Program-made: the position numbers and the translations under genes
Shown: piece after piece, positions 1-62,343 of the stretch
Numbering within the stretch: the first letter of the stretch is position 1
How the letters are laid out: every line of letters starts with the position of its first letter
Assembly (NCBI GenBank): GCA_963722255.1
Contig: CAVRJO010000001.1
Location: 672,001-736,000 of the forward strand
Length of the DNA stretch: 64,000 bases
From: Candidatus Babeliales bacterium
Lineage (GTDB): Bacteria > Babelota > Babeliae > Babelales > JANWKD01
Reading direction: 5' to 3'
The notes under the pieces: generated by a model
Database searches by the model: none
Told to the model about the DNA's origin: nothing
The model's input: the letters and a program-made list of their open reading frames with translations, nothing else

Positions 1-503
1 GTGCAGCTACTGAAACTGAAATGAAAGAGAAGAAAGATCGCATCGAAGACGCACTCAATGCTACACGCGCAGCGGTAGAAGAAGGTGTTGTTGCCGGCGG
101 CGGTGTTATTTTAATTCGCGCACAAGATGTTGTTAACAAACTCGTTCTTGAAGGCGATGAAAAACTTGGCGCACAAATTATTGCGCGTACTCTAGAAGAG
201 CCATTACGTATTATTGCAAGCAATGCAGGCGATGAAGCTTCCGTTATTGTTAATGCAGTAAAAGCGCAAACAGGCACTATGGGCTATGATGCAAAAAATA
301 GCAAATTTGTTGATATGGTCCAAGCAGGTATTATTGATCCTGCTAAGGTAACAAGAACTGCATTGCAAAATGCTTCTTCTATTGCCGGATTATTGCTTAC
401 AACAGAAGCTATGATTTGTGATTTACCTGAAGATAAAAAAGATGCTCCTCAAGCTGGCATGCCTCCTATGGGTGGCATGGGCGGTATGGGCGGCATGTAT
501 TAA
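1..503 (+). CDS. groEL: Chaperonin GroEL, C-terminal part (5' end outside window)
   Basis: [54 protein letters not shown] and GGMGGMGGM tail are diagnostic of GroEL. Confidence 0.99.
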
Positions 504-509
504 GAATTA

Positions 510-639
510 AAAAATTCCGCGTACAAAACAAATAACCAACAGGGGCTCGCAGTAAAGTGCGGGCCTTTGTTGGTTTTATGCTAATAGTGTATACTGAGTA
601 ATAATTGTAAACAGATATTTTCATGTAAATGGAGTTCCA
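510..639 (+). promoter_or_regulatory. groEL 3'-UTR module copy L1: intrinsic terminator hairpin + sigma70-like promoter + RBS
   Basis: Hairpin AACCAAC-AGGGGCTCGCA-gtaaag-TGCGGGCCTTT-GTTGGTT; TTGTTG (567-572), 17-bp spacer, TATACT (590-595); GGAG before ATG 640; module recurs downstream. Confidence 0.75.
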
Positions 640-1506
640 ATGAAAAAAATAATAACTTTAGCTTTAATAATTATTTGCGTGGCTCAAAATATTAGCGCCA
701 ATCAAACAATGTTATATAACGCGTTGTTAAATAATTCTACAGCGGAGATCTGCGCAGCAGTAAAATTAGGAGCGGATGTAAATGTACCAATATATCATAA
801 ATCTCCATTATTTATCGCAATATCTTTTGGTCATTTTGACGCTGTTAAATGCTTGCTTGAATATGGCGCACAAAGCACTCCTGAGCTTAGCGAATTAGCT
901 TTAACTAAAGGAGATGCTAAGTCTTCTATTTTGCTTTTTACTTATTATGATACAAAGCTTAGTCATCTTGATAGTGTATTGATAGAAGAAGGGTTAATCG
1001 TTCATTTAGATTTTGAATCTATAGTATCGCTTATTAAAAGATCACCGGATTTTGCACTTTGTATCAGCAGGTCATCTCGAATAATGCAGTACATAATTAA
1101 TAAGATTGATGACTCTAAAGCCTTTTCCGAATTAATTCAACAGATATTAGATTCCGGGTATAACGTGAATGATCTTTGGAGTTTACTACTCTTTACTCAA
1201 GATATAAATATCACGGCTCTTAAGCTTATTATTGAAAAAGGAGCGGATATTAATATCACCTTTGAAGACGAAGACAAATATTGTTGTTCTTGTTGGACGC
1301 CTTTACTTGCAGCAATCGCTTTAGATAATGAAGAAACAGTGAGAATATTATTGGATGCCGATGCTGATATAAATAAAAGCGAGTATCTTTTCGAAAAAGA
1401 TTGTTCTTGTGTATTTCATGGTCAACATTCGCCTCTTGAATTGGCAATAAAAAAAAATAATAAATTTATAATTAAGCTTTTAATAGAGCATGGTGCTTGC
1501 ATTTAA
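640..1506 (+). CDS. Ankyrin-repeat protein with signal peptide
   Basis: GADVN, SPLFIAI, TPLLAAI, DADIN, SPLELAI ankyrin motifs; MKKIITLALIII N-terminus. Confidence 0.92.
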   Translation: MKKIITLALIIICVAQNISANQTMLYNALLNNSTAEICAAVKLGADVNVPIYHKSPLFIAISFGHFDAVKCLLEYGAQSTPELSELALTKGDAKSSILLFTYYDTKLSHLDSVLIEEGLIVHLDFESIVSLIKRSPDFALCISRSSRIMQYIINKIDDSKAFSELIQQILDSGYNVNDLWSLLLFTQDINITALKLIIEKGADINITFEDEDKYCCSCWTPLLAAIALDNEETVRILLDADADINKSEYLFEKDCSCVFHGQHSPLELAIKKNNKFIIKLLIEHGACI

Positions 1507-1600
1507 ATAATGTTGTAAAAGCACCTATTATTTCTATACAGAAATATAGAAATAATAAACACTGTAACTATATATTCATATAATCACAAAGGGACTCTTT

Positions 1601-2020
1601 ATGAAAAAACTCATAGTAACATGTATGTTTATAACAATCATTTCAACCTTTATAGCAATTGATGCTAAAACTAAAAAACAAATTTTAAATCGATGCAAAC
1701 TTTTAAGCCATATCAAAATTGCTACATTAAAAAATTTACAAAAATTGGAGCAAGAAGCACATGACGGCGATATTTCAAGCGCTCTTGCCTTATATGAAAT
1801 ATTTGAAATGGAGAAAGACGGAAGAGGGTTTTATCATTCTTCTAATGAAGTCTTTAAAAAATTAAGAGCAATTAACTATATAAATGAACTTGGAAAAGTA
1901 TATTCAACAATTCGCGAAAGCTTTAGCGAAGAAGTTTACGAAGAGTGCAAAGCTATATTTGAAGAAGATGAAGAAAGAAATAAAACCATAGAATATTTAC
2001 TTAATAATCCTATCAGATAA
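1601..2020 (+). CDS. Hypothetical exported protein
   Basis: 139-aa ORF, MKK+hydrophobic signal peptide, AGGGA RBS; leader resembles that of the 5427 gene. Confidence 0.8.
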   Translation: MKKLIVTCMFITIISTFIAIDAKTKKQILNRCKLLSHIKIATLKNLQKLEQEAHDGDISSALALYEIFEMEKDGRGFYHSSNEVFKKLRAINYINELGKVYSTIRESFSEEVYEECKAIFEEDEERNKTIEYLLNNPIR

Positions 2021-2155
2021 TAGCCAAACGTGCACCCGGAAACCTAATACGCAAGCATTAATGTTGAATTGGTGCATATTCGTGTGGGGAGAGGAATCCA
2101 AGGGAACATTGGTGTTCTTTTGGCTTTAGGTCTTTTGACATAAAAATACCTAAAT
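2021..2155 (+). repeat. Structured multi-hairpin repeat, copy A
   Basis: TGCACC/GGTGCA stem, apical TAATAC/GCATTA hairpin and terminal TTTAGG...CCTAAA hairpin; alignable to copies at 2838, 4046, 25596, 42500, 62087. Confidence 0.85.
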
Positions 2156-2157
2156 AA

Positions 2158-2285
2158 TAAAATCCACCTACAGAACAAATAACCAACAGGGCCTCGCAGT
2201 AAAATACGGGCCGTTGTTGGTTTTATACTTGTAGTGTATACTGAGTAAGAATGGTAAACAGATATTTTTATATAAATGGAGTTAT
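2158..2285 (+). promoter_or_regulatory. groEL 3'-UTR module copy L2 (terminator+promoter+RBS)
   Basis: AACCAACAGGGCCTCGCAGTAAAATACGGGCCGTTGTTGGTT; TTGTTG-17bp-TATACT; AAATGGAG before ATG 2286; closely matches 510-639. Confidence 0.8.
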
Positions 2286-2837
2286 ATGAGGAAGTTGTTA
2301 GCAATTTTATTATTCGTATATGCCCCAACGAATATTGTATATCCCAATGATTTAATCGAAGAATGGACTGCAAAAGATTTAGCTGAATATACCCTTAAAT
2401 ACATAAACCTGCTCTACATGGAAGAAAATCAATGTGCAGCAAATGATCAATGTAAAGCATATTATAAAGATGATATGTCCGAGTTTGAATCAACGCTAAA
2501 AAAAATTTCCAGTCAAAGACCTGAATTGATACCGGAAGCGCTTGATGAGCTCATTCCCAATGAAAAAAGTAGCAAATTCACTCGAGAACGGTCAGTTGCA
2601 GTTGTAAGCCTTTATTCACGTAATAGAGAAAATAGCAAAAAAAAAGTTAAAGACAAAAATTATACCATTGAAGAAAAACTCGAAGCGAAATATGGAATAA
2701 AAAAAATAGATGGCGTTGAACCAAGTTCAAGCAATTGTAACGCTTGGTCACTTCAAAACCTTTTTAGAACAGCAGATAATGAATGCACACATATTCATCG
2801 CTCTCTCAGGTTTATTCAGAAAATAAAAAATTTATAA
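2286..2837 (+). CDS. Hypothetical exported protein
   Basis: 183-aa ORF with signal-peptide-like N-terminus and GGAG RBS. Confidence 0.8.
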   Translation: MRKLLAILLFVYAPTNIVYPNDLIEEWTAKDLAEYTLKYINLLYMEENQCAANDQCKAYYKDDMSEFESTLKKISSQRPELIPEALDELIPNEKSSKFTRERSVAVVSLYSRNRENSKKKVKDKNYTIEEKLEAKYGIKKIDGVEPSSSNCNAWSLQNLFRTADNECTHIHRSLRFIQKIKNL

Positions 2838-2972
2838 AATATTTCCGCTAGTGCGTCATGAGCCCAAAATCATGAGGCTGCTAAAGCCTCAATGATGTGT
2901 GGTCATATACGCATCCAGGGAACCATTGGTGCTCTTTTAGTTACGGTATTTTGGGTAAACAAAATACTGTAG
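2838..2972 (+). repeat. Structured multi-hairpin repeat, copy B
   Basis: ATTTCCG start, TCAT-GAGGCT/AGCCTC-ATGA apical stem, TACGGTATTTTG/CAAAATACTGTA terminal hairpin. Confidence 0.85.
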
Positions 2973-2975
2973 TAA

Positions 2976-3100
2976 AGAATTCAGTCGTACAAAACGTAAA
3001 AAGGGCTCGCTTGATTGGCTGGCCCTTTTGTTATTTATATTCAAATAGTGTATACTGGGTAATATCAGTAAAAGCATATTTTCATGTAAATGGAGTTTTT
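2976..3100 (+). promoter_or_regulatory. groEL 3'-UTR module copy L3
   Basis: AAAAGGGCTCGC...GGCCCTTTT hairpin; TTGTTA-17bp-TATACT; TTTTCATGTAAATGGAG before ATG 3101. Confidence 0.8.
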
Positions 3101-3979
3101 ATGAAAAAAATCTTATTATTATGCCTAATTCTGTTACCGCAGATATTAAAAGATACGCGATGTTCAGATAAACAAACAAAAGAAGCGACTTACAAAAAAG
3201 TTGAATTTCTTTTCTACCTTGATAAAGATCTAAAGCCCTGGGCCCAAACACAAAATGCCATCGCCGAATTAACAGAAGCATGCCTAGATAATCAACCTAA
3301 GATTCATGATAAAGATGCGATCGAGATACTAAAAAAATACGATATGGTTGATTCTGATGGTGTTATTAACAAATGGGTGTGTGAAGCTGTACAAAAAATT
3401 GAAAGATCATATATCAATTTTGAAAATTTCATAAATTCACTTTCAGACACTCAAGATAAAAACAAACTTTGCGAAGTTGCTGAAGCATTGTACGACTTAC
3501 ACCAATCATACCATTGTAACCCACACACCAAGTTAAACAATCAAATTTTGCAAAAATATGATTTAATTGAACCTGATGGAGCGTTAACCGAAGCTGTATA
3601 CATTAGACTCGAGGAGGCAAGCTCATTCTATGAAGACATTATAGAAAGGGCTCAGGATGATGATGAAGCGTATGATGGTTACCCCGATTTTGTAAAAATT
3701 AAAGAACCATTAATTAACATAATGATTTTAATAAACAATATTATTAATCCAAAATCAAAAGAAAGCGCTTTTGAGCATGCTCGCGCATGGTTTGACATTA
3801 ATAATGCCTATGCAACAAAAAACTTGTTTGTAGATAATACATTTTTACAAAACTACGGACTCATTGATAATAATGGGAAGATCACTCAAGAAGCATATAT
3901 CGCCATAAGTCATCTAAAAACATCAATGAAGATTTTTGATTTTGCACATGTACGACCCGATCGCGGATTTCGCTTTTAA
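3101..3979 (+). CDS. Hypothetical exported protein with three copies of an ILxKYxLxDxxG domain (true start probably 3101, not 2897)
   Basis: MKKILLLCLILL after GGAG RBS; ILKKYDMVDSDG, ILQKYDLIEPDG, FLQNYGLIDNNG. Confidence 0.85.
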   Translation: MKKILLLCLILLPQILKDTRCSDKQTKEATYKKVEFLFYLDKDLKPWAQTQNAIAELTEACLDNQPKIHDKDAIEILKKYDMVDSDGVINKWVCEAVQKIERSYINFENFINSLSDTQDKNKLCEVAEALYDLHQSYHCNPHTKLNNQILQKYDLIEPDGALTEAVYIRLEEASSFYEDIIERAQDDDEAYDGYPDFVKIKEPLINIMILINNIINPKSKESAFEHARAWFDINNAYATKNLFVDNTFLQNYGLIDNNGKITQEAYIAISHLKTSMKIFDFAHVRPDRGFRF

Positions 3980-4045
3980 AAAAGCAAGTTTATGAAGAAT
4001 GCAAAGAAATATTTGAAGCTGAAGACGATGAAAAATAAAAAATTT

Positions 4046-4195
4046 ATAAAATGTTTCCGGTAGCGCGTTATGAATCTGGAATTTTGATGCGTCGGCATCA
4101 ACAATGGAATGGTTCATATATGCGCGGAAGAGCATTCCACCAGCATGGTGGTGTCCTTTTGGTTTTAGGTATTTTTGACATAAAAATACCTAAGG
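4046..4195 (+). repeat. Structured multi-hairpin repeat, copy C
   Basis: TTCC/GGAA, GCGCG/TGCGC, TGAATC/GGTTCA, TTGATGC/GCATCAA, CCACCA/TGGTGG and TAGGTATTTTT/AAAAATACCTA stems. Confidence 0.85.
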
Positions 4196-4204
4196 AAAAT
4201 AATT

Positions 4205-4326
4205 TGTGGCCAATAGAGAGATACATAAGAGAAGAATCTCTTATGGGCCCTTTTGATATTTAAATTCTAATAGTGTAAACTAGGTAATATAAGTAATACT
4301 ATATTTTCATGTAATATGGAGTTTTT
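4205..4326 (+). promoter_or_regulatory. groEL 3'-UTR module copy L4 (diverged hairpin)
   Basis: GGGCCCTTTT hairpin end; TTGATA-17bp-TAAACT; TTTTCATGTAATATGGAG before ATG 4327. Confidence 0.72.
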
Positions 4327-4875
4327 ATGATGAAAAAACAGCTTTTTTCTTTCCTCGCTCTCTTAAGTTTAGCTACATTCTCTATTCATAGTTCAGTATT
4401 TGATAGATTAGATGAATTTATGGAAGCAGCATCTAAAAAAGGTACTGAATATTTAGAGAAAGAATTCGCACGAGAAAAGAAAAGAAAACATAATCAAGCG
4501 GTGCGCATTTTAACAAAGATAAATAGAAAGCATACTCGTGATTTTGAATGTCTTAACAAGACAACTGACATGTCTAAAAGAAACTGTCTTGCTTTCAATA
4601 CTCACACAAAAAAAGAAAATGATCCTTCAATCTATTTTGAACAAATTAAGGAACATCGCAAAAAAACTGAAAGTGCTGAGTTTGATCTCGATGAAAATGA
4701 AAATACCGATCCAAATTTAGATGCACAAATAATTAATGAAAAAATGAACCGTTTGCAAGAAGAATACAAACGACTCTTTAACGATGTAATTCATGCTACA
4801 CGGAGTAAAGAACGTAAAAAATCAGATAAAAAAACTACAGAAATAAGACAAGGTCGTACCATCATTATCAAGTAG
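4327..4875 (+). CDS. Hypothetical exported, charged protein
   Basis: 182-aa ORF with signal peptide MKKQLFSFLALLSL. Confidence 0.8.
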   Translation: MMKKQLFSFLALLSLATFSIHSSVFDRLDEFMEAASKKGTEYLEKEFAREKKRKHNQAVRILTKINRKHTRDFECLNKTTDMSKRNCLAFNTHTKKENDPSIYFEQIKEHRKKTESAEFDLDENENTDPNLDAQIINEKMNRLQEEYKRLFNDVIHATRSKERKKSDKKTTEIRQGRTIIIK

Positions 4876-4879
4876 ATAT

Positions 4880-4943
4880 AAATAAAATGGGCTCGCAGTA
4901 ATAATGCGGGCCTTTTTTATTCTATTAATATATATGGAATTTT
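4880..4943 (+). terminator. Shortened module copy L5 (terminator hairpin + RBS)
   Basis: GGGCTCGCAGTAATAATGCGGGCC followed by a T-run; same stem as the groEL terminator. Confidence 0.8.
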
Positions 4944-5372
4944 ATGAAAAAATTTATATTATTTACTTCTTTAATCTTACTTATTTTCCAACAAAATATA
5001 ATTTCTTCTGAACCACAAACAGATGCCTATGAAAATGCATGTAGAAATTATGAAATATTTGCACGCAATGCAATTATAATTCTAAATAACGTTTATGGAA
5101 CATCAACGTTTACTAACAAACATTATTTGGCAGCAGAAGAAGAATTAAAAGAAGCATGCAAAAAAAATGAGTGTACCATAACAAATCTAGAAAGCCGCAT
5201 TCTATTACAAAAACATGAATTAGTCGATGCTCACGGTAATGTCAAAGAAGAGGTATGTACAGTTTTTAACCATTTAGAAAATAACCAACTTGAATTAGTA
5301 GCAGAAGAAAATTCAGATACTACTTTTGAAATAAAACTAAAAAAAGCTAAAAATAAAAGAGAAGAATACTGA
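4944..5372 (+). CDS. Hypothetical exported protein (ILLQKHELVDAHG domain)
   Basis: Signal peptide; ELKEACKKNEC...ILLQKHELVDAHG shared with the 3101 and 5427 proteins. Confidence 0.82.
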   Translation: MKKFILFTSLILLIFQQNIISSEPQTDAYENACRNYEIFARNAIIILNNVYGTSTFTNKHYLAAEEELKEACKKNECTITNLESRILLQKHELVDAHGNVKEEVCTVFNHLENNQLELVAEENSDTTFEIKLKKAKNKREEY

Positions 5373-5730
5373 AGATTAATTAATTATATAATCATATTAT
5401 TTCATATAACAATAAAGGGACTTTTCATGAAAAGACTTTTACTATTCACACTTTTATGCGCTTCGCACAATACTTTTTGTTTAAAACAAGAAGATGCACA
5501 AAGTAATAAAAAGTCCGATGAAAAAGTTGGTGCACTTTTAACGGATATGATTAGAGCTAAATCAAGAAAAGAATGTAAAGAAATTGGTATGGCATATTAT
5601 GATCTGCACAGAGCATGTGAAGACAATGAATGCAAGGTAACTGATGAAACAAGTAAAGACATATTACAAAAATATAATCTTGTTGACTCTGAAGGTGCTC
5701 TTGAAGATGAAACTTGCAACTCTTTAGAAT

Positions 5731-6642
5731 AGACCTCTTCTGAAACTCATTTAACCAACTCAAAATTATAGATACCCGCAATAAGATTGAAACGGAGCCC
5801 AAATCTTTTTCGTCGATTGCGATATTTGTCAGCAACTATTTTAAAACGTTTTATCATACCAATTACATGCTCATTTAAAACACGCTGGCTTGATAATTCT
5901 CTATTTCGTTGTTTATCTGTTAATGTTAAAGGATTTTTTTTACTTTTTTTCTTTGGCATAGAAGTATTATTATGAATTTTTTTTAGACCTAAATAACCTG
6001 TATCTGTAAGAACTTCAGTAGATTTTGCGAAGTGAATTTTTGAAGTTTTGAAGAGTTTAAAATCATGTCGTTTACCATCTGAAAAATTTGTACAAACAAT
6101 TTCTTTTGTTTTTTTGTTTACAACTACCTGAGTTTTTATAGTATGACGTTTTTTCTTACCGGAATAAAATTTCCGCTGTTTTTTTTAGGACGTTCAATAG
6201 GACTTTCAGTTGCATCTATTAAAATAACTTCAAATTCATTATCGCTTTTCAGTAGCGCTTTTCTGCCAGGCAATCTAAATTCTTTGCTTTGAATAAGAGT
6301 ATTTTCAACCCATCGTATTGCTTCAAATGCATTGCTTTCAGCAATGCCATAACTTGTCGCAATATGAAGATACGTTCGATATTCCCGTATATATTCAAGA
6401 GTCATCAAAAGCATTTCTTCAATACTGAGCTTATTTGGACGTCCTCCCTTTGCCTTTTTTATTTTTTGCGCTTCTTTTAAAATAGAAACCAATACTTCAA
6501 ATGTTTTTCGTTTTACTCCAGTTACTCTTCTAAAGTTTTTTTCTGATGAAATTTTTAATTTTTCATACTTCATAATCGCTTACCCTTTTTTTATAAATCG
6601 ATTATGATTATGCCATAAAATTTATAGTTTCAGAAGAGGTCT
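5731..6642 (-). mobile_element. IS5-family (ISL2-like) insertion sequence
   Basis: Perfect 17-bp TIR AGACCTCTTCTGAAACT / AGTTTCAGAAGAGGTCT; 3-bp target duplication AAT. Confidence 0.95.
5747..6573 (-). CDS. IS5-family transposase in two frames joined by a probable -1 programmed frameshift at CCT-A8-C
   Basis: ORF1 FRRVTGVKRKTF...IDATESPIERPKK; second frame KQRKFYSGKKKRHT...DTGY...EHVIGMIKRFKI. Confidence 0.9.
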
Positions 6643-6905
6643 AATACATAAAAAACAACCCTGATAGCATAAAATTCGTTGGCTTCATCAGCTTTTTAGA
6701 CGTTCCCTTGGTTATGTTAATGATTGGCGGAAAACTTGCATCTATCCTATTAAGATAAAGAACAGCTTTGTAAAGTGCGAGCTTTTTTTATTCTCAAGTA
6801 AATAATGTAATCTATGTAAAGTACTATTTTTTACGAGCTTTTTCATGCTACCGTATAATCATCACTATCAAAATATTCGAAGAAATTGATTTTTAAGGAG
6901 CATGT

Positions 6906-9593: not shown

Positions 9594-12500
9594 TTAGAGC
9601 GGCGGGAAGGATAAATTTGAAAGATTATTTGGAACTGTACTTGATACATTTGCTAAAAATTGTTGATACGTATTTGTTACGAAAACATAATTAATATCAT
9701 TATTATATGCAGTATTTTGAATAATTAAATTAGTGTTTGACGATGCACTTAATCCTCTTCCTGAAGAAAAGCCAGGCAATCCTGCAGCAAGTGTAGGGCC
9801 TGCAACACCAAATATTTCATTGTTTCTTATTATACCATTTGAAGGGAATATATACGCTAAGAATGTTTCTTCATTAACTGTAGAACCATTAGGATTTGAG
9901 GCTACTGCAATATAACGACCACCTCGTGACCAGCTCACTGCATTATTAGTTGCCCCATGTGTAACATTACTAATTGAAGAAAGTGATGCACCCGTATACT
10001 TTAAAGCACGAATATCAAAGCCTCCTGTACCTGCAGCCCCAACAATTATAGCATATTGCGCATCTGAAGCCCATTTAACACCATTAACATTACCTCCGTG
10101 TGAAAATGATGTTATTGGAACCAATGAAGAACCAGTGAAACTTGCTACTTGAACTTCTGGGCCTGATCCCGTAGTAGCACCAAACAAAATTGTTCTGCCA
10201 TCAAGTGCCCAATTAACACTAGTAACTGCAGGAATTGAAAGTGATGCAACTATTGTTAACGTAGTACCTTTTGAGAACTGTAACACAACTGGTCCGGCAG
10301 CGATAAATTCACTATCCGGTGACCAATCTATTGCCGAAGCTCCAAGATTACCATTTGATGCTACGATATTTAGAGCTGACCCGGTAAACTCAAGAACAAC
10401 TACTTCAGGATCAGGAACTGCTGCAAAAGAACTTTGATTATCTGAATATGCAATAAACTCTCCACTATGAGACCAAGCCATCCCCCCCGTAAATACCAGT
10501 GTTGGCGCAGATGCAACAAAATTCAACGAGCTACCATTAAATTGGTAAACAGAAATTGTTCCCACTGTACCATTATTTACTCCAACTGCTAAATATTGTC
10601 CATCAGGCGACCAGGATACTGCTAAGGGCGTTCCTACAGTAGTCACTGATGCAACTCGAACTAAATCATTACCAACAAATTTAACGACAGCAACATTTGA
10701 TGGTAATGATGCTATTGCAAGAAATTTATCATTCGGAGACCATGCAATAGCTTGAAGAGTAGTAGTTCCGGATAATGATGGCAACCCACCACTCGTTAAT
10801 GTTGTAAATGTATATTGCATTTGAATACCAAATGGTTGTGCATTTGATGTAGTTGTTGAATTACTAATTTGATTGTTCATTATAACATCAGCCTGCTCAG
10901 TTGCACCAATTAGTAGCCCTGTTGCTGTATTTCCAGAAAAAGTTGCTGATGTACTTGTCGCATCAATAATATTATCTTCAAATCTATTATTACCACCTGA
11001 AACTGCACTAATACCAAATGCATTTCCATTAGTTGCTGCAGTATTATTTATCGTAGACATATTAATTATGTTTGAAAAACTATTTATTAAACTAATTCCG
11101 GCACTTGTATTATTTGAAAAAACTGAATTAGATACACTACCATTGCTTGCAGACAATAAGGTAAGACCTGTTCCATTCGCAACAAAATCCGATTCGGTAA
11201 TCGTAAAATTGATTATTGGAGAACCAACCGTACCATTGAAAAATGCACCTATACCAGAAGTACGTATCGTTACATTTTCTAAAATTACATCTGTTATAGT
11301 ATCATTAATTTCAATCCCATTAGCGGTAAAATTAGAAATAACCCCATTTTCAATAAGCACCGTATTTGTTCCAGGTCCCACAGCTATTCCATTTACCCCT
11401 GGTACACTATTTCCTTGAGTAAGTGTGGCACATTGCAAATTTAAGGTAACATTCGAAGCATTAATGGTAATTGCTGATGAAGCTATTAATGGACTAAAAA
11501 CAATATTATTTGCCAGAATATACACACCCGGTTGTGTAATAGTAAATCCTGTAGTATCTACCATAGCTTGCGTGATTAATACTGGAGAACAAACAGTCTG
11601 ATTCAATATAGCATTTAACACAGTAAATGTTCCATTAAAATCTATTGTCAACGTACTCTTAATATCAGTCAATGATGTAAACACACCATTGAAATCTACA
11701 AACGTTTGATTACAGCATGCATTCAATGCAGTAAATGTTCCATTAAAATCTATTGTCAACGTACTCTTAATATCAGTCAATGATGTAAACACACCATTGA
11801 AATCTACAAACGTTTGATTACAGCACGCATTCAATGCAGTGAATGTTCCATTAAAATCTATTGTCAACGTATTCTTAATATCAGTCAATGATGTAAACAC
11901 ACCATTGAAATCTACAAACGTCTGATTACAGCATGCATTCAATGCCGTAAAGGTACCATTAAAATCGGTGGTTATAGTTTGTTTGATATCAGCTAAAATA
12001 GTCCAAGTGAAATCAAAATCGTTTTGAATAGTAGCACAGCAGGTTGTTACCGTTGATTCAATGCTCGTTAACGTAGTATAAACACCAGAAAGATCACACG
12101 ATCCTGTAGAAATAGCAGCGATAGCAGTGAATGTTCCGTTGAAATCAGTGGTTATTGTTGTTTTGATATCATTCAATGTAGTGTAAACGCCTGAGAGATC
12201 ACAAGCGCCAGCGACGATTGCCGCGATTGCAGTGAAGGTGCCATTAAAATCTGTGGTGATAGTTTGTTTGATATCAGCTAAAATAGTCCAAGTGGAATCA
12301 AAATCATTTTGAATAGTAGCACAACAGGTTGTCAACGTATCATTAAGATCCGCTAAAATTGTCCATGTGTTTATAAAATCTGTCGATACCGTCACCTTGA
12401 TATCATTAAGAACTGTAAATGTGCCTTCAAAATCATTTTGAATAGTAGCACAACAGGTTGTCAACGTATCATTCAGGTCCGCCAAGATTGTCCATGTGTT

Positions 12501-13085
12501 TATAAAATCCGTCGATACCGTAATTTTAATATCATTCAAAACCGTAAATACACCCTGAAAGTCTTTTTGAATTATAGCGCAACATTGCACAACAATTTGT
12601 GTCAAACGATTAAGTAGTTGCAGCACTTCAGCAAAATCGCACTCTAAAACAGTACCTACGGGGGCTCCATCGGTATTTCCGGGTGCATCAGGACGCGGTG
12701 CTTTTCCAAATTTTGTTACCTGTATTAACTTTTCAATAACAACCGGTAAAGCTTCTGCCAAATCTTGAACATCTAACAATGTAGCGCCATTTTCTAATTG
12801 TTCATGACAGGTCAAAACACTGTAGGGCAATTCATCAACCGTATTATTTTCACAAGCATCATCAATAACAATCCTTAATAGTTCATCAAGGCGTAACCCC
12901 ATAAGATTTTCCGGGGCAACAAGCATCTGCATCGTAGTATCTTGACTGCTCTTTGATTTAGGTAGAGTTTCGTATCGTTCTCGTTGTGCATTATAAGAAA
13001 TGTGAGTTTTTGATAAAACCGGTTGCAATACAACTGAAATAAGTGCCAACAAAAAGACTTTTTTAGCAAATTTTGTACGATTCAT
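9594..13085 (-). CDS. Large exported protein: Cys-Cys repeat stalk + right-handed beta-helix + WD40-like propeller
   Basis: Signal peptide MNRTKF...; DFNGTFT repeats; ITQPGVYILANNI, NVTLNL, IENGVISNF beta-helix; repeated WSPDGQYLAV-type blades. Confidence 0.85.
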   Translation of the reverse strand: MNRTKFAKKVFLLALISVVLQPVLSKTHISYNAQRERYETLPKSKSSQDTTMQMLVAPENLMGLRLDELLRIVIDDACENNTVDELPYSVLTCHEQLENGATLLDVQDLAEALPVVIEKLIQVTKFGKAPRPDAPGNTDGAPVGTVLECDFAEVLQLLNRLTQIVVQCCAIIQKDFQGVFTVLNDIKITVSTDFINTWTILADLNDTLTTCCATIQNDFEGTFTVLNDIKVTVSTDFINTWTILADLNDTLTTCCATIQNDFDSTWTILADIKQTITTDFNGTFTAIAAIVAGACDLSGVYTTLNDIKTTITTDFNGTFTAIAAISTGSCDLSGVYTTLTSIESTVTTCCATIQNDFDFTWTILADIKQTITTDFNGTFTALNACCNQTFVDFNGVFTSLTDIKNTLTIDFNGTFTALNACCNQTFVDFNGVFTSLTDIKSTLTIDFNGTFTALNACCNQTFVDFNGVFTSLTDIKSTLTIDFNGTFTVLNAILNQTVCSPVLITQAMVDTTGFTITQPGVYILANNIVFSPLIASSAITINASNVTLNLQCATLTQGNSVPGVNGIAVGPGTNTVLIENGVISNFTANGIEINDTITDVILENVTIRTSGIGAFFNGTVGSPIINFTITESDFVANGTGLTLLSASNGSVSNSVFSNNTSAGISLINSFSNIINMSTINNTAATNGNAFGISAVSGGNNRFEDNIIDATSTSATFSGNTATGLLIGATEQADVIMNNQISNSTTTSNAQPFGIQMQYTFTTLTSGGLPSLSGTTTLQAIAWSPNDKFLAIASLPSNVAVVKFVGNDLVRVASVTTVGTPLAVSWSPDGQYLAVGVNNGTVGTISVYQFNGSSLNFVASAPTLVFTGGMAWSHSGEFIAYSDNQSSFAAVPDPEVVVLEFTGSALNIVASNGNLGASAIDWSPDSEFIAAGPVVLQFSKGTTLTIVASLSIPAVTSVNWALDGRTILFGATTGSGPEVQVASFTGSSLVPITSFSHGGNVNGVKWASDAQYAIIVGAAGTGGFDIRALKYTGASLSSISNVTHGATNNAVSWSRGGRYIAVASNPNGSTVNEETFLAYIFPSNGIIRNNEIFGVAGPTLAAGLPGFSSGRGLSASSNTNLIIQNTAYNNDINYVFVTNTYQQFLANVSSTVPNNLSNLSFPPL
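11618..12550 (-). repeat. Coding tandem repeats in the giant protein (about three 108-bp units and two 129-bp units, built on an 18-aa sub-period)
   Basis: GTAAATGTTCCATTAAAATC at 11623 and 11731 (108 bp apart); AAATCATTTTGAATAG at 12301 and 12430 (129 bp apart). Confidence 0.9.
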
Positions 13086-13263
13086 TTTTTCTCCTACTTC
13101 TTTTTTTTTAGTTAACAAACTATCCAGAAAATTAAAAAAAGCAACATTTTTTTCAAGGCTTTAAAAAATAAATTAAAAAAAGCTATACTTGAATAAAAAT
13201 ATTTTCTGTTATACTATTTATTAAAATTAGCATAGCTTTAATAACTATTTTTTGGAAAAATTT

Positions 13264-19394: not shown

Positions 19395-19738
19395 CTGGAT
19401 CCTCGCGCATTCGCTCAGGATGACAGTTTTGCACTTTATTTTTTTTTACAAGGCCACAATGCACCACAAGAGATATTTATATCATTATTTCCTTTAAGCA
19501 CAACCGTTGAAGGCTCTGCAGCATATCCCAGCGGGATATGGGAGGAGCCGCCTTTTGTGCGACAGAGATTCCTAAGATACTTCTTAGGTGTCCTTTTGGT
19601 TTTAGGTATTTTTGACATAAAAATACCTAATTTAAAAAAATGTATTAAAGGCATTGGGCTTACAATATCTTTATAAAAAAAATCTTATTAAAAGGAATTA
19701 GGGTTATAGGGATTTTATAGCAGAAAAATACCTTATAA
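19395..19738 (+). repeat. Mosaic palindromic repeat: CGTC-type half-REP + variant structured repeat (copy G) + AGGTATT hairpins
   Basis: CTGGATCC...CAGGATGAC; 19497-19632 nearly matches the reverse complement of 25268-25402; 19681-19733 matches 25783-25834. Confidence 0.88.
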
Positions 19739-25189: not shown

Positions 25190-25840
25190 TTACTAAGGTA
25201 TTTTGTTTGCCACAAAGTTTCTTTATAAAGGTATTGCATGCACAATACCTTTAATATATTTTTTTAACTTAGGTATTTTTATGTCAAAAATACCTAAAAC
25301 CAAAAGGACACCTAAGAAGTATCTTAGGAATCTCTGTCGCACAAAAGGCGAGCCCTCGCATATTCCTTCGGAATATGCGAGGGCTCTTCAACGGTTGCGC
25401 TCAAAGGACTTTTCATTTTTATTACTGGATCCCCCAGCCGACGCTTATCCAGGCCTTCCTACTTCGCTCCCATGAAGCTTCGAAGGACATGTCCGGCCTG
25501 TTCTTCGAAGTCTTGACGTAGTAGAACTTGGCAAGCTTTGTCATCCAGAGACCTTCACTTAGGTGAAGGTCTCTGGATGACAATCGGCAATTTATAATAT
25601 TTCTCCGGTAGCTACACGTGGTCCCGAAAACTTAATGCTGTAAGCATTAATGTTGAAGTGGGCCATATTGGAGCGGGAGAGCAATCCAACAGCATGTTGG
25701 TGTCCTTGTAGTTAAGGTATATTGGACACACAATATACCTTTAATAAAAAAAATTTTGACATAAAAATACCTTAGTAAAAAAAATCTTATTAAAAGGAAT
25801 TAGGGTTATAGGGATTTTATAGCAGAAAAATACCTAAGAA
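25190..25840. repeat. Large mosaic of palindromic repeats (variant copy H reversed, nested REP-like units, structured copy D)
   Basis: GAGCCCTCGCATATTCC/GGAATATGCGAGGGCTC; near-perfect palindrome TTGTCATCCAGAGACCTTCAC-tTAg-GTGAAGGTCTCTGGATGACAA; copy D at 25596-25745. Confidence 0.9.
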
Positions 25841-42464: not shown

Positions 42465-42812
42465 CTTAGGTATTTTGTTTGTTCAAAATACCTAAAACCA
42501 AAATTTTTTATTAGCAGTATTTTGCATGCCCAAAATAGTGCAGACAAAAGGGCACAAACAGTTCCTTTTGATCCCTTTCCCATGCGTATATGCACCACAC
42601 ATCATTTCGGCTTTGCAGCCTCATGATTTCGGGTGCACGACGCATTACCGGAATATATTTTATAAGTCTGATTTTTTACTAAGACATGTATGTTTTTCAA
42701 CACAAAAAACAATTATTAATCGCAAAGTTGTCATTAAAGAGCAATATACCAATGAATGTCATTGCGAGAGCCTACTTCGCTTTGCGAAGTATGGTTCGTG
42801 GCAACCCAGTAA
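42465..42812 (-). repeat. Structured repeat copy F (reverse) + CGTC-type REP
   Basis: 42500-42735 is close to the reverse complement of 62015-62235; TGTCATTGCGAG...GCAACCCAG at 42757-42809. Confidence 0.88.
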
Positions 42813-61844: not shown

Positions 61845-62290
61845 CAGGGCAACCGCACTATAAAGATTGAATTAATAAGAGAAAAATACGTTTGGAACGG
61901 CAGTTAAATTCACTCGTCTCATTGCGAGCAAATGCGCGGCAACCCAGTTATAAAAATAAAAAATTCATTAATAAAATGACCTATTTATCCACTGGGTTGC
62001 TTCGCAAGCTCGCAATGACAACCTTGCGATTAATAATCGTTTTTTTTGTTGCAAGAAAACATGTCTTAATGAAAAAAATAGCTTATAAAATATTTCCGAT
62101 AGCACGTCGTGCACCCGAAATCATGAGGCTTAAAGCCTCAATGATGTGTGGTGCATATACGCACGGAAAAGGGACAAAAGGAACTGTTTGTGCCCTTTTG
62201 TCTGCAGTATTTTGGGCACGCAAAATACTGCTAATAGGAAAAATGCCCTTTGGTATTAAAGGTATTCGGCATGCAATATCTTTATAACTA
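61845..62290 (+). repeat. MITE left end + CGTC-REP doublet + structured repeat copy E + AGGTATT hairpin
   Basis: CAGGGCAACCGCACTATAAAG; CATTGCGAGC...CTCGCAATGAC; TGCACC/GGTGCA and GAGGCT/AGCCTC stems. Confidence 0.88.
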
Positions 62291-62343
62291 CAAATAAAAC
62301 ATCACTTTGAATTAAGATCTTTTGAACATACAAAAGACCTTAA

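Follow-up and report, generated by a model that had tools for sequence, protein, structure and literature searches.

The 64,000-nucleotide stretch analysed here, called the window below, is C1:672001-736000 in the genome of a Candidatus Babeliales bacterium (G000; 1.62 Mb, 34% G+C, contigs C1 and C2, 93% complete). It opens with the 3' end of groEL, which is followed by seven co-oriented open reading frames (ORFs), g1 to g7, and by repeated copies of the groEL 3' spacer (L1 to L6). This array was most likely piled up by ordinary recombination with DNA of related strains, and not by a dedicated integron-like machine. All seven ORFs are positive by a signal-peptide heuristic (base rate in G000: 529 of 1532 ORFs, 35%) and form the longest such run in the genome, which confirms the observation in an earlier note on this DNA. 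Secreted proteins of unknown function take up a large part of the gene content of Dependentiae; in Chromulinavorax 44% of genes carry signal sequences (PMC6561590). The size of G000, its ankyrin proteins and its many signal-peptide genes agree with what is described for Chromulinavorax. The features of the locus are as follows.

3..503 (+), groEL 3' end, the anchor gene; 77-89% identity to groEL of relatives
504..639 (+), L1, native groEL 3' spacer, 136 bp, with promoter elements; fold z -6.1
504..639 (+), parts of L1: hairpin 534-575, -35 at 567-572, -10 at 590-595, ribosome-binding site (RBS) 629-634
640..1506 (+), g1, secreted-type ankyrin-repeat protein; Pfam Ank_2 4e-19
1601..2020 (+), g2, divergent family-B protein with no L module; leader common with g7
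2020..2163 (+), R1, copy of a dispersed structured repeat, 5' end missing
2152..2285 (+), L2, copy of L1 beginning where the groEL stop would be; 87% over 132 nt, fold z -3.2
2286..2837 (+), g3, family A; 35% to a G004 protein, leave-one-out hidden Markov model (HMM) E 2e-12
2823..2979 (+), R2, dispersed structured repeat, overlaps the g3 stop
2973..3100 (+), L3, module copy; 74% to L1, fold z -3.0
3101..3979 (+), g4, family B with three domains in tandem; E 1e-29 by an HMM that excludes G000 proteins
3986..4040 (+), what is left of the 3' end of a g2-like gene; matches 1932-1985 at 81% over 57 nt (E 4e-8)
4035..4202 (+), R3, dispersed structured repeat
4203..4326 (+), L4, promoter/RBS half of the module behind an R-type hairpin; blastn, fold z -1.9
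4327..4875 (+), g5, secreted-type protein, nearly an orphan; its one homologue in the protein collection is 64% identical
4876..4943 (+), L5, groEL-type terminator and short leader without promoter; fold z -5.8
4944..5372 (+), g6, family B; HMM without G000 proteins E 2e-17
5427..5732 (+), g7, family B, interrupted by an insertion sequence (IS); HMM without G000 proteins E 5e-27
5731..6642 (-), IS within g7 (HTH_Tnp_4 + DDE_Tnp_4); 3-bp target repeat
6645..6760 (+), 3' part of g7 beyond the IS; resembles the C-termini of the relatives' proteins P0006 and P0009
6761..6795 (+), L6, weak terminator-like site past the former g7 stop, a doubtful module copy; fold z -1.4

In blastn searches of G000, L1 matched 2152-2283 at 87% over 132 nt (E 4e-41), 2973-3106 at 74% over 141 nt and 4264-4323 at 80% over 60 nt. 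The genome-wide search for further copies proposed in the earlier note found none by blastn outside the groEL locus in the 1.62 Mb. L3 and L4 are 88% identical over 85 nt. The left half of L4 is only 41% identical to L1 and instead matches the hairpin of R-type repeats at C1:646049 and C2:456367. The groEL-type hairpin is present in L1, L2, L3 and the short L5 (which matches only the hairpin portion of L1, 83% over 41 nt) and absent from L4. L6 follows the former g7 stop, since the part beyond the IS resembles the relatives' C-termini; it matches over 50 nt at 70%, was not recovered by blastn with L1 and folds no better than shuffles. The recurrence of about 120 bp from behind the groEL stop, as described earlier, thus stands for L2, L3, the right half of L4 and the hairpin of L5, but not for the L4 hairpin or the site at 6762. 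Similarly, the right arm of the groEL terminator does supply the -35 element in L1-L3, but in L4 the hairpin is of R type. G000, G001, G003 and G004 agree at every position of a 14-nt non-coding stretch (515-528) between the groEL stop and the terminator; the 12-nt core of this stretch occurs once in G000.

The promoter-like elements of L1-L4 (TTGTTG/TTGTTG/TTGTTA/TTGATA, 17 bp, TATACT/TATACT/TATACT/TAAACT) are exactly as first described, and the -10 ends 44-46 nt 5' of the ATG. A generic promoter scan was uninformative (37 sites, 32.6 expected) and a genome-specific motif test was used instead. The pattern TTG-N20-TAnnnT occurs on the sense strand of 140 of 882 intergenic leaders, against 45 on the antisense strand and 55 in shuffles, and its position in G000 peaks 30-50 nt upstream of the ATG. 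Judged by motif statistics, the -35/-10 pairs of L1-L4 are credible predicted promoters of the main type in this genome. Invariance among L1-L4 extends beyond the boxes, to 10 of the 17 spacer positions and 21 of the 33 positions downstream, and their likeness therefore reflects shared descent as much as selection.

The promoter module precedes only four of the seven genes (g1, g3, g4 and g5), L5 has no promoter, and g2 and g7 have another, common leader (p 0.0003). The earlier statement that the module feeds most of the genes was therefore too broad. The leaders of g1, g3, g4 and g5 are alike (p <=0.004 against 4000 background pairs), and the DNA encoding their signal peptides is no more alike than background (p 0.06-0.97, 4000 pairs). 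Signal peptides travelling with the module were considered and rejected, the similarity ending at the ATG. L1 and L2 are 87% identical although g1 and g3 have no detectable similarity, and here too the match stops at the ATG, so a recent self-duplication cannot be the source. Across G000, 194 pairs of genes have similar leaders: the encoded proteins are near-identical in 160 pairs, diverged paralogues in 21 and unrelated in 13, and the groEL locus accounts for 5 pairs of the last group. At C1:788626 and C2:545150, two unlinked genes with no protein similarity have a common 118-nt leader (80%) beside the end of an IS4/IS5-type element.

The cargo falls into at least four unrelated families. Family B comprises g2, g4, g6 and g7 and was matched in 15 of 261 genomes. 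With an HMM built from five outside proteins, the four best of the 1532 G000 proteins were, in order, g4, g7, g2 (5e-8) and g6; for g2 this is to be read with the caveat that the model includes the protein found with g2, and that two other family-B HMMs missed it (E 1.1 in one). The assignment of g2 is otherwise transitive: it matches a G185 protein at 31% (E 1e-11), and the identity of this protein to the member P0018 is 43%. A single-sequence structure model of g2 is weak (predicted local distance difference test, pLDDT, 66), and a small helical family-B model (pLDDT 87) had no PDB match at E <=0.001. Diverged tandem arrays of family B occur in G048 and G171 (8, 5 and 4 ORFs, 15 of 17 matched at E <0.001). 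The 8-gene array of G048 (L096 5946-9000) contains no detectable DNA repeat; the others are L097 (G171) and L098. Family A was detected in four of the 201 genomes searched; those of its members that G000, G003 and G004 carry are all located behind groEL. The protein g3 itself had no relative in a word-indexed protein search. Among 261 genomes g5 matched one, G000 itself.

Several possible kinships within the array were tried without success: g1 as a paralogue of family A (hhalign 0.3%; other ankyrin proteins score better), families A and B as relatives (0.4%) and g5 as a member of family B (0.8%). Because family A, family B, g1 and g5 lack mutual similarity in the comparisons run, the genes behind L1-L4 are mutually unrelated. 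The earlier description of the cargo as mostly unrelated is thus right for these four genes and wrong for the array as a whole, where paralogy, named there as evidence against a capture platform, unites four of seven genes. Full-length homologues of g1 occur in G001, on a 19-kb contig rich in IS and toxin-antitoxin (TA) genes (31%) and at another locus (27%). Arrival of the promoter half together with g1 is unsupported: the leaders of these homologues compared with L at p 0.59 and 0.02, and at p 0.75 and 0.07 among promoter-bearing leaders. The IS elements of this G001 contig (C4, L198) are 99.9-100% identical to those of G000, and segments of G000 islands at C2:569-590 kb and C1:459-462 kb are 80-88% related to it. 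The near-identical IS elements indicate either recent exchange or a binning issue. Elsewhere in the window, 9594-13118 (-) encodes a secreted-type protein of 1,160 residues, in which a beta-helix and a WD40-like propeller occur together with internal Cys-Cys repeats.

Three further features, absent from the earlier note, are the repeat R in front of L2, L3 and L4, the g2-like remnant at 3986-4040 and the IS that splits g7. R is a hairpin-rich, dispersed non-coding repeat of about 165 bp with 26 hits in G000, 22 of them full length. It lies directly 5' of L2, L3 and L4 in the same orientation, and the recurring spacer is therefore R + L, about 300 bp long. In 15 copies of one subfamily, compensatory changes were seen at 22 of 40 predicted pairs. 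Rfam gave six matches, all far below the gathering score, and no family was assigned. R1, R2 and R3 are each nearest to copies elsewhere, and a clade of the three was weakly rejected (approximately unbiased test, p-AU 0.047). However, the 5' end of R3 is 90% identical to R2 over 42 nt and its 3' end 91% identical to R1 over 45 nt, as would fit a single old insertion that subsequently became mosaic. In most R copies the distance to the nearest gene is tens to hundreds of bases. Others in the window are at 19469-19640, 25259-25409, 25584-25751, 42504-42669 and 62076-62293. The copies form two subfamilies, some stand as back-to-back inverted pairs, their hairpin modules are shuffled, and matches were also found in G001 and G004. 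The IS at 5731-6642 has 9 near-identical copies in G000 and one at 89%.

The groEL locus was compared in three of the four other genomes of the family (G001, G003, G004; G002 had no groEL match). Cargo differs from G000 in all three, at genus and family level, so the variability among relatives that the earlier note expected was found. The hairpin half of L1 is kept in all three and the promoter half was detected in none of them. In G001 a family-B gene stands directly behind groEL, and g7 is its closest counterpart in G000 (29%, E 2e-10). G003 has four co-oriented genes, three of which match family A, and a copy of the terminator stands ahead of genes two and four. In G004 there are two family-A genes, and the leader is copied. 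These two plain tandem paralogue arrays likely represent the starting state. L5 resembles their short modules (p <=0.005 with four of six leaders). Outside the family, a terminator-plus-leader copy was present in none of the 20 groEL loci fetched from 36 order-level genomes searched; matches of 20-46 nt occurred in 5. A GroEL search of a wider collection of genome contigs returned distant bacteria alone (<=65% identity), and a scan of metagenomes with the groEL-spacer pattern gave one match, within an unrelated coding sequence, judged to be chance. Four public DNA runs, one of which may be the source sample, cover 5-7 of 30 bins; both listed joints are inside groEL and none joins module to module, but this cover is too thin to count. 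No RNA run was listed as containing the locus.

Two other groEL loci have contents of their own. In G001 (L031 3926-4563) a MazE-like antitoxin and Fic/Doc pair comes right after the family-B gene. In G035 (L054), from another family, groEL and a small nuclease-like gene are followed by four secreted-type genes similar to one another, an array of independent origin at 678-4066 past the groEL stop.

Duplicated gene ends are not confined to groEL. A same-strand downstream copy of the tail or untranslated region (UTR) was found at 32 of 1531 G000 gene ends, 0.2-11.5 kb away. Thirteen single-copy anchors were kept, in which a copy of the anchor's coding tail lies in non-paralogous DNA 0.9-4 kb downstream; the 19 excluded were UTR-only cases, opposite-strand double listings, or derived from paralogues or islands. 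The anchors include ruvC, ksgA, cysS, rplQ, an sbcC-like gene and an Omp85-domain gene, with mostly secreted-type genes between the copies, and no tail remnant (0 of 13) is fused to a long ORF. Among 69 coding differences at these anchors, 45 are synonymous and 48 fall at third positions, a synonymous fraction above the 0.34-0.46 expected from duplication and neutral decay (p 1e-7 to 9e-4). A wider set, which this one replaced, gave 95 of 195 but included five poorly defined anchors and one wrong match. With 45 of 69 differences synonymous, the tail copies look like alleles from related strains. On the simplest reading of these sequences, both copies would once have been working alleles in different strains that were then brought together. 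Separately, an ABC-F gene has one 72-bp tail copy (87.5%) 6.8 kb downstream.

A parallel is found at rplQ (G000 C2:220873-227992, L216), amid secreted genes. There the tail of the sbcC-like gene is copied over 191 bp (97%) and the rplQ tail with its terminator over 84 bp (94%). The two copies are fused head to head, overlapping by 4 bp, and the enclosed genes share <=32%. This is the same paradox as in L1 and L2, flanks more alike than cargo. In relatives the interval holds a small gene only (G004) or an unrelated 8-kb insert (G001). Variable secreted cargo lies behind all four housekeeping anchors checked, and the relatives all have different downstream genes there; variable cargo behind housekeeping genes is therefore general in the family.

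These observations are best brought together by an old tandem array that gained whole spacer-gene units through RecA-type unequal recombination with relatives' alleles, an account that we judge somewhat more probable than the sum of its competitors. The start would be an ordinary tandem paralogue array of terminator, leader and gene, as in G003 and G004. In the G000 lineage the spacer would then have acquired a promoter and an upstream R, which gave the [R + L] unit of about 300 bp between genes, while different strains came to hold different cargo behind groEL. When DNA of a related strain recombined by one crossover in or near groEL and another in a non-matching spacer copy, for which the repeated spacer would be the obvious homology, the donor gene would be inserted ahead of the residents without replacing them. 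Each added gene would bring a terminator and its own promoter, the spacers would be differing strain alleles, and the newest gene would be nearest groEL. Additive recombination explains why the spacers are more alike than the cargo, why R precedes each downstream L and why each added gene has a promoter, as well as the presence, at the distal end, of a gene like that of G001 and a module like those of the outgroups. The genes recA, comEC and dprA all score above cut-off in G000. From these comparisons we infer DNA transfer between strains, dependence on RecA, the order of events, promoter activity and secretion. For g1 and g5 our guess is that they came to lie behind the spacer when DNA between start regions of similar sequence was deleted and expression was selected for.

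A number of results weigh against this account. No crossover inside L or R was observed in the comparison, which covered relatives at genus and family level. At groEL only non-coding DNA was copied, without any remnant of the coding tail; the synonymous test therefore draws on other loci, where the 13 anchors were hand-picked from 32 after inspection and one of them, GT, looks neutral (6 synonymous, 10 non-synonymous). The synonymous bias could also arise if relatives' DNA overwrote tails after a local duplication. Tail copies at four non-groEL anchors were found in none of 11 loci of relatives. Polarisation by distant outgroups is weak (9 against 9, with 4 of 22 undecided) and the identity gradient is imperfect, the promoter halves of L3 and L4 being 88% identical. 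The additive model by itself also leaves breakpoints exactly at the ATG unexplained.

Internal birth and death would account for part of the same pattern without foreign alleles, through multi-gene tandem duplication, deletions (for example between similar TTTATGAAAAAA starts, which would place the module before a different gene) and gene conversion of the spacers. It is a possible explanation, if a doubtful one. Four of the seven genes are paralogues, the g2 remnant and the leader common to g2 and g7 look like duplication scars, family B builds very diverged tandem arrays in G048 and G171, the 21 diverged paralogue pairs of G000 have leaders at 72-98% and proteins at 38-83%, and 88 of 1532 ORFs begin ATGAAAAAA. 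Such a process, however, predicts neither the synonymous bias in the tail remnants nor flanks of 94-97% that enclose cargo of <=32%; g1 has its full-length homologues elsewhere in G001, and neither g1 nor g5 has relatives within the array. That the tandem heteroallelic copies are an artefact, alleles of at least two strains joined by the assembler, is very improbable. Strain mixing could produce such tandems, and apparent frameshifts do occur in G000 (rpoA is in pieces), but the copies differ by 13-26%, which should be beyond assembler merging, a short-read contig bridges L2 into g3 (2185-2388) with zero differences, g2 is recorded also on a separate 2,894-bp contig, and scars of some age are present in the array, among them the IS and its target repeat.

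Dedicated capture, with R as an attC-like single-strand hairpin site at cargo 3' ends and an enzyme such as an HUH transposase joining gene-R units, is improbable. It would suit the position of R, directly 5' of all three downstream promoter modules, in one orientation and abutting gene ends, together with its compensatory changes, the weak rejection of a local R clade and the precise start of the cargo at the ATG. Against it, the mosaic ends of R1-R3 fit a single ancestral insertion, most copies of R stand well apart from genes, g4, g5 and g6 do not end at R, and no R was found at the 13 other duplicated loci mapped. IntI was not found in the 93% complete genome (TIGR02249 best 80 bits, cut-off 265), and the only two tyrosine recombinases (PF00589) are both on the other contig, C2. 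The core motifs of attC are RYYYAAC and GTTRRRY; none of the 15 R copies has both cores, whichever strand is read, and none was seen on the + strand of L1-L4. The earlier note had itself reported no attC or integrase, and these searches bear it out. Its integron-like capture platform does not survive the paralogy of four genes and the plain tandem arrays of G003 and G004, nor does a dedicated platform fit variable cargo at all four other housekeeping genes and duplicated tails elsewhere without the module. What does survive is the idea of the UTR as both homology and portable promoter: the promoter is plausible and the module precedes unrelated proteins, while its role as homology would follow from the additive account.

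A bolder form of additive gain is rather unlikely. In it, this lineage would assemble its repertoire of secreted proteins by integrase-free, newest-first stacking of relatives' DNA behind housekeeping genes throughout the genome, with the groEL spacers as a reusable terminator-promoter-RBS joint that accepts unrelated ORFs at the ATG and R as a possible hot spot of strand exchange. If true, the locus would be a functional integron analogue derived from a housekeeping 3' UTR. More generally, duplicated, synonymously diverged tails offer an easy way to trace additive gene gain on a genome scale, applicable to any genome, the groEL array yields exact predicted breakpoints and transcription starts, and both bear on how host-restricted Dependentiae gain and turn over secreted proteins.

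Several known systems share single traits with the array. In the terminal reassortment of type III effectors a 5' expression module is reused ahead of unrelated coding sequence, but there the N-terminal secretion signal is shared, whereas here the shared sequence ends at the ATG. Integrated elements can duplicate the 3' end of their target gene, as in icd/icdC at e14. The likeness is a diverged copy of a housekeeping-gene tail left past the insert; the inserts here, in contrast, are one to few secreted-type genes with no integrase. As dispersed non-coding copies with conserved secondary structure, R resembles miniature inverted-repeat transposable elements (MITEs) and repetitive extragenic palindromic (REP) elements. 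Literature searches on Dependentiae and Babeliales found no relevant repeats, duplications or such arrays, and those on integrase-free cassette arrays nothing relevant; subscription papers were outside their coverage. Integrons are defined by intI, the promoter Pc and attI (PMC6856922). The groEL array resembles them in outcome as a fixed chromosomal site with a variable row of genes, probably newest first, and differs in lacking IntI and attC cores, in long homology in place of site-specific crossover, and in having four separate promoter-like sites, one for each of L1-L4, where integrons have one Pc.

In the lpl cluster of Staphylococcus aureus, tandem paralogues of exported proteins are rearranged by homologous recombination at one conserved segment, 132 bp long with 88% mean identity and located within each ORF; duplication, deletion, re-integration of circles and horizontal transfer are all invoked there (PMC2568036). 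The groEL array likewise has a repeat long enough for homologous recombination, its L copies being 74-88% identical over 85-141 nt. The lpl genes, however, are all paralogues, whereas four of seven here belong to family B and g1, g3 and g5 fall outside it, and the repeat here is intergenic, derived from a housekeeping 3' spacer, promoter-bearing and set between at least four unrelated families. Transformation-induced merodiploids are laboratory duplications of 100-900 kb (PMC3784515), and in homology-facilitated illegitimate recombination homology at one end only adds sequence (PMC3240628). The likeness is that incoming DNA pairs with a non-matching repeat or has homology at one end, with no integrase; the units here, by contrast, are 1-3 kb, fixed and found at many housekeeping genes, and transformation would be an assumption. 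By these comparisons the groEL array appears closest to the lpl cluster and to merodiploids made by transformation. Taken as one locus, it neatly illustrates recombination processes that are already known, and is not a new machine.

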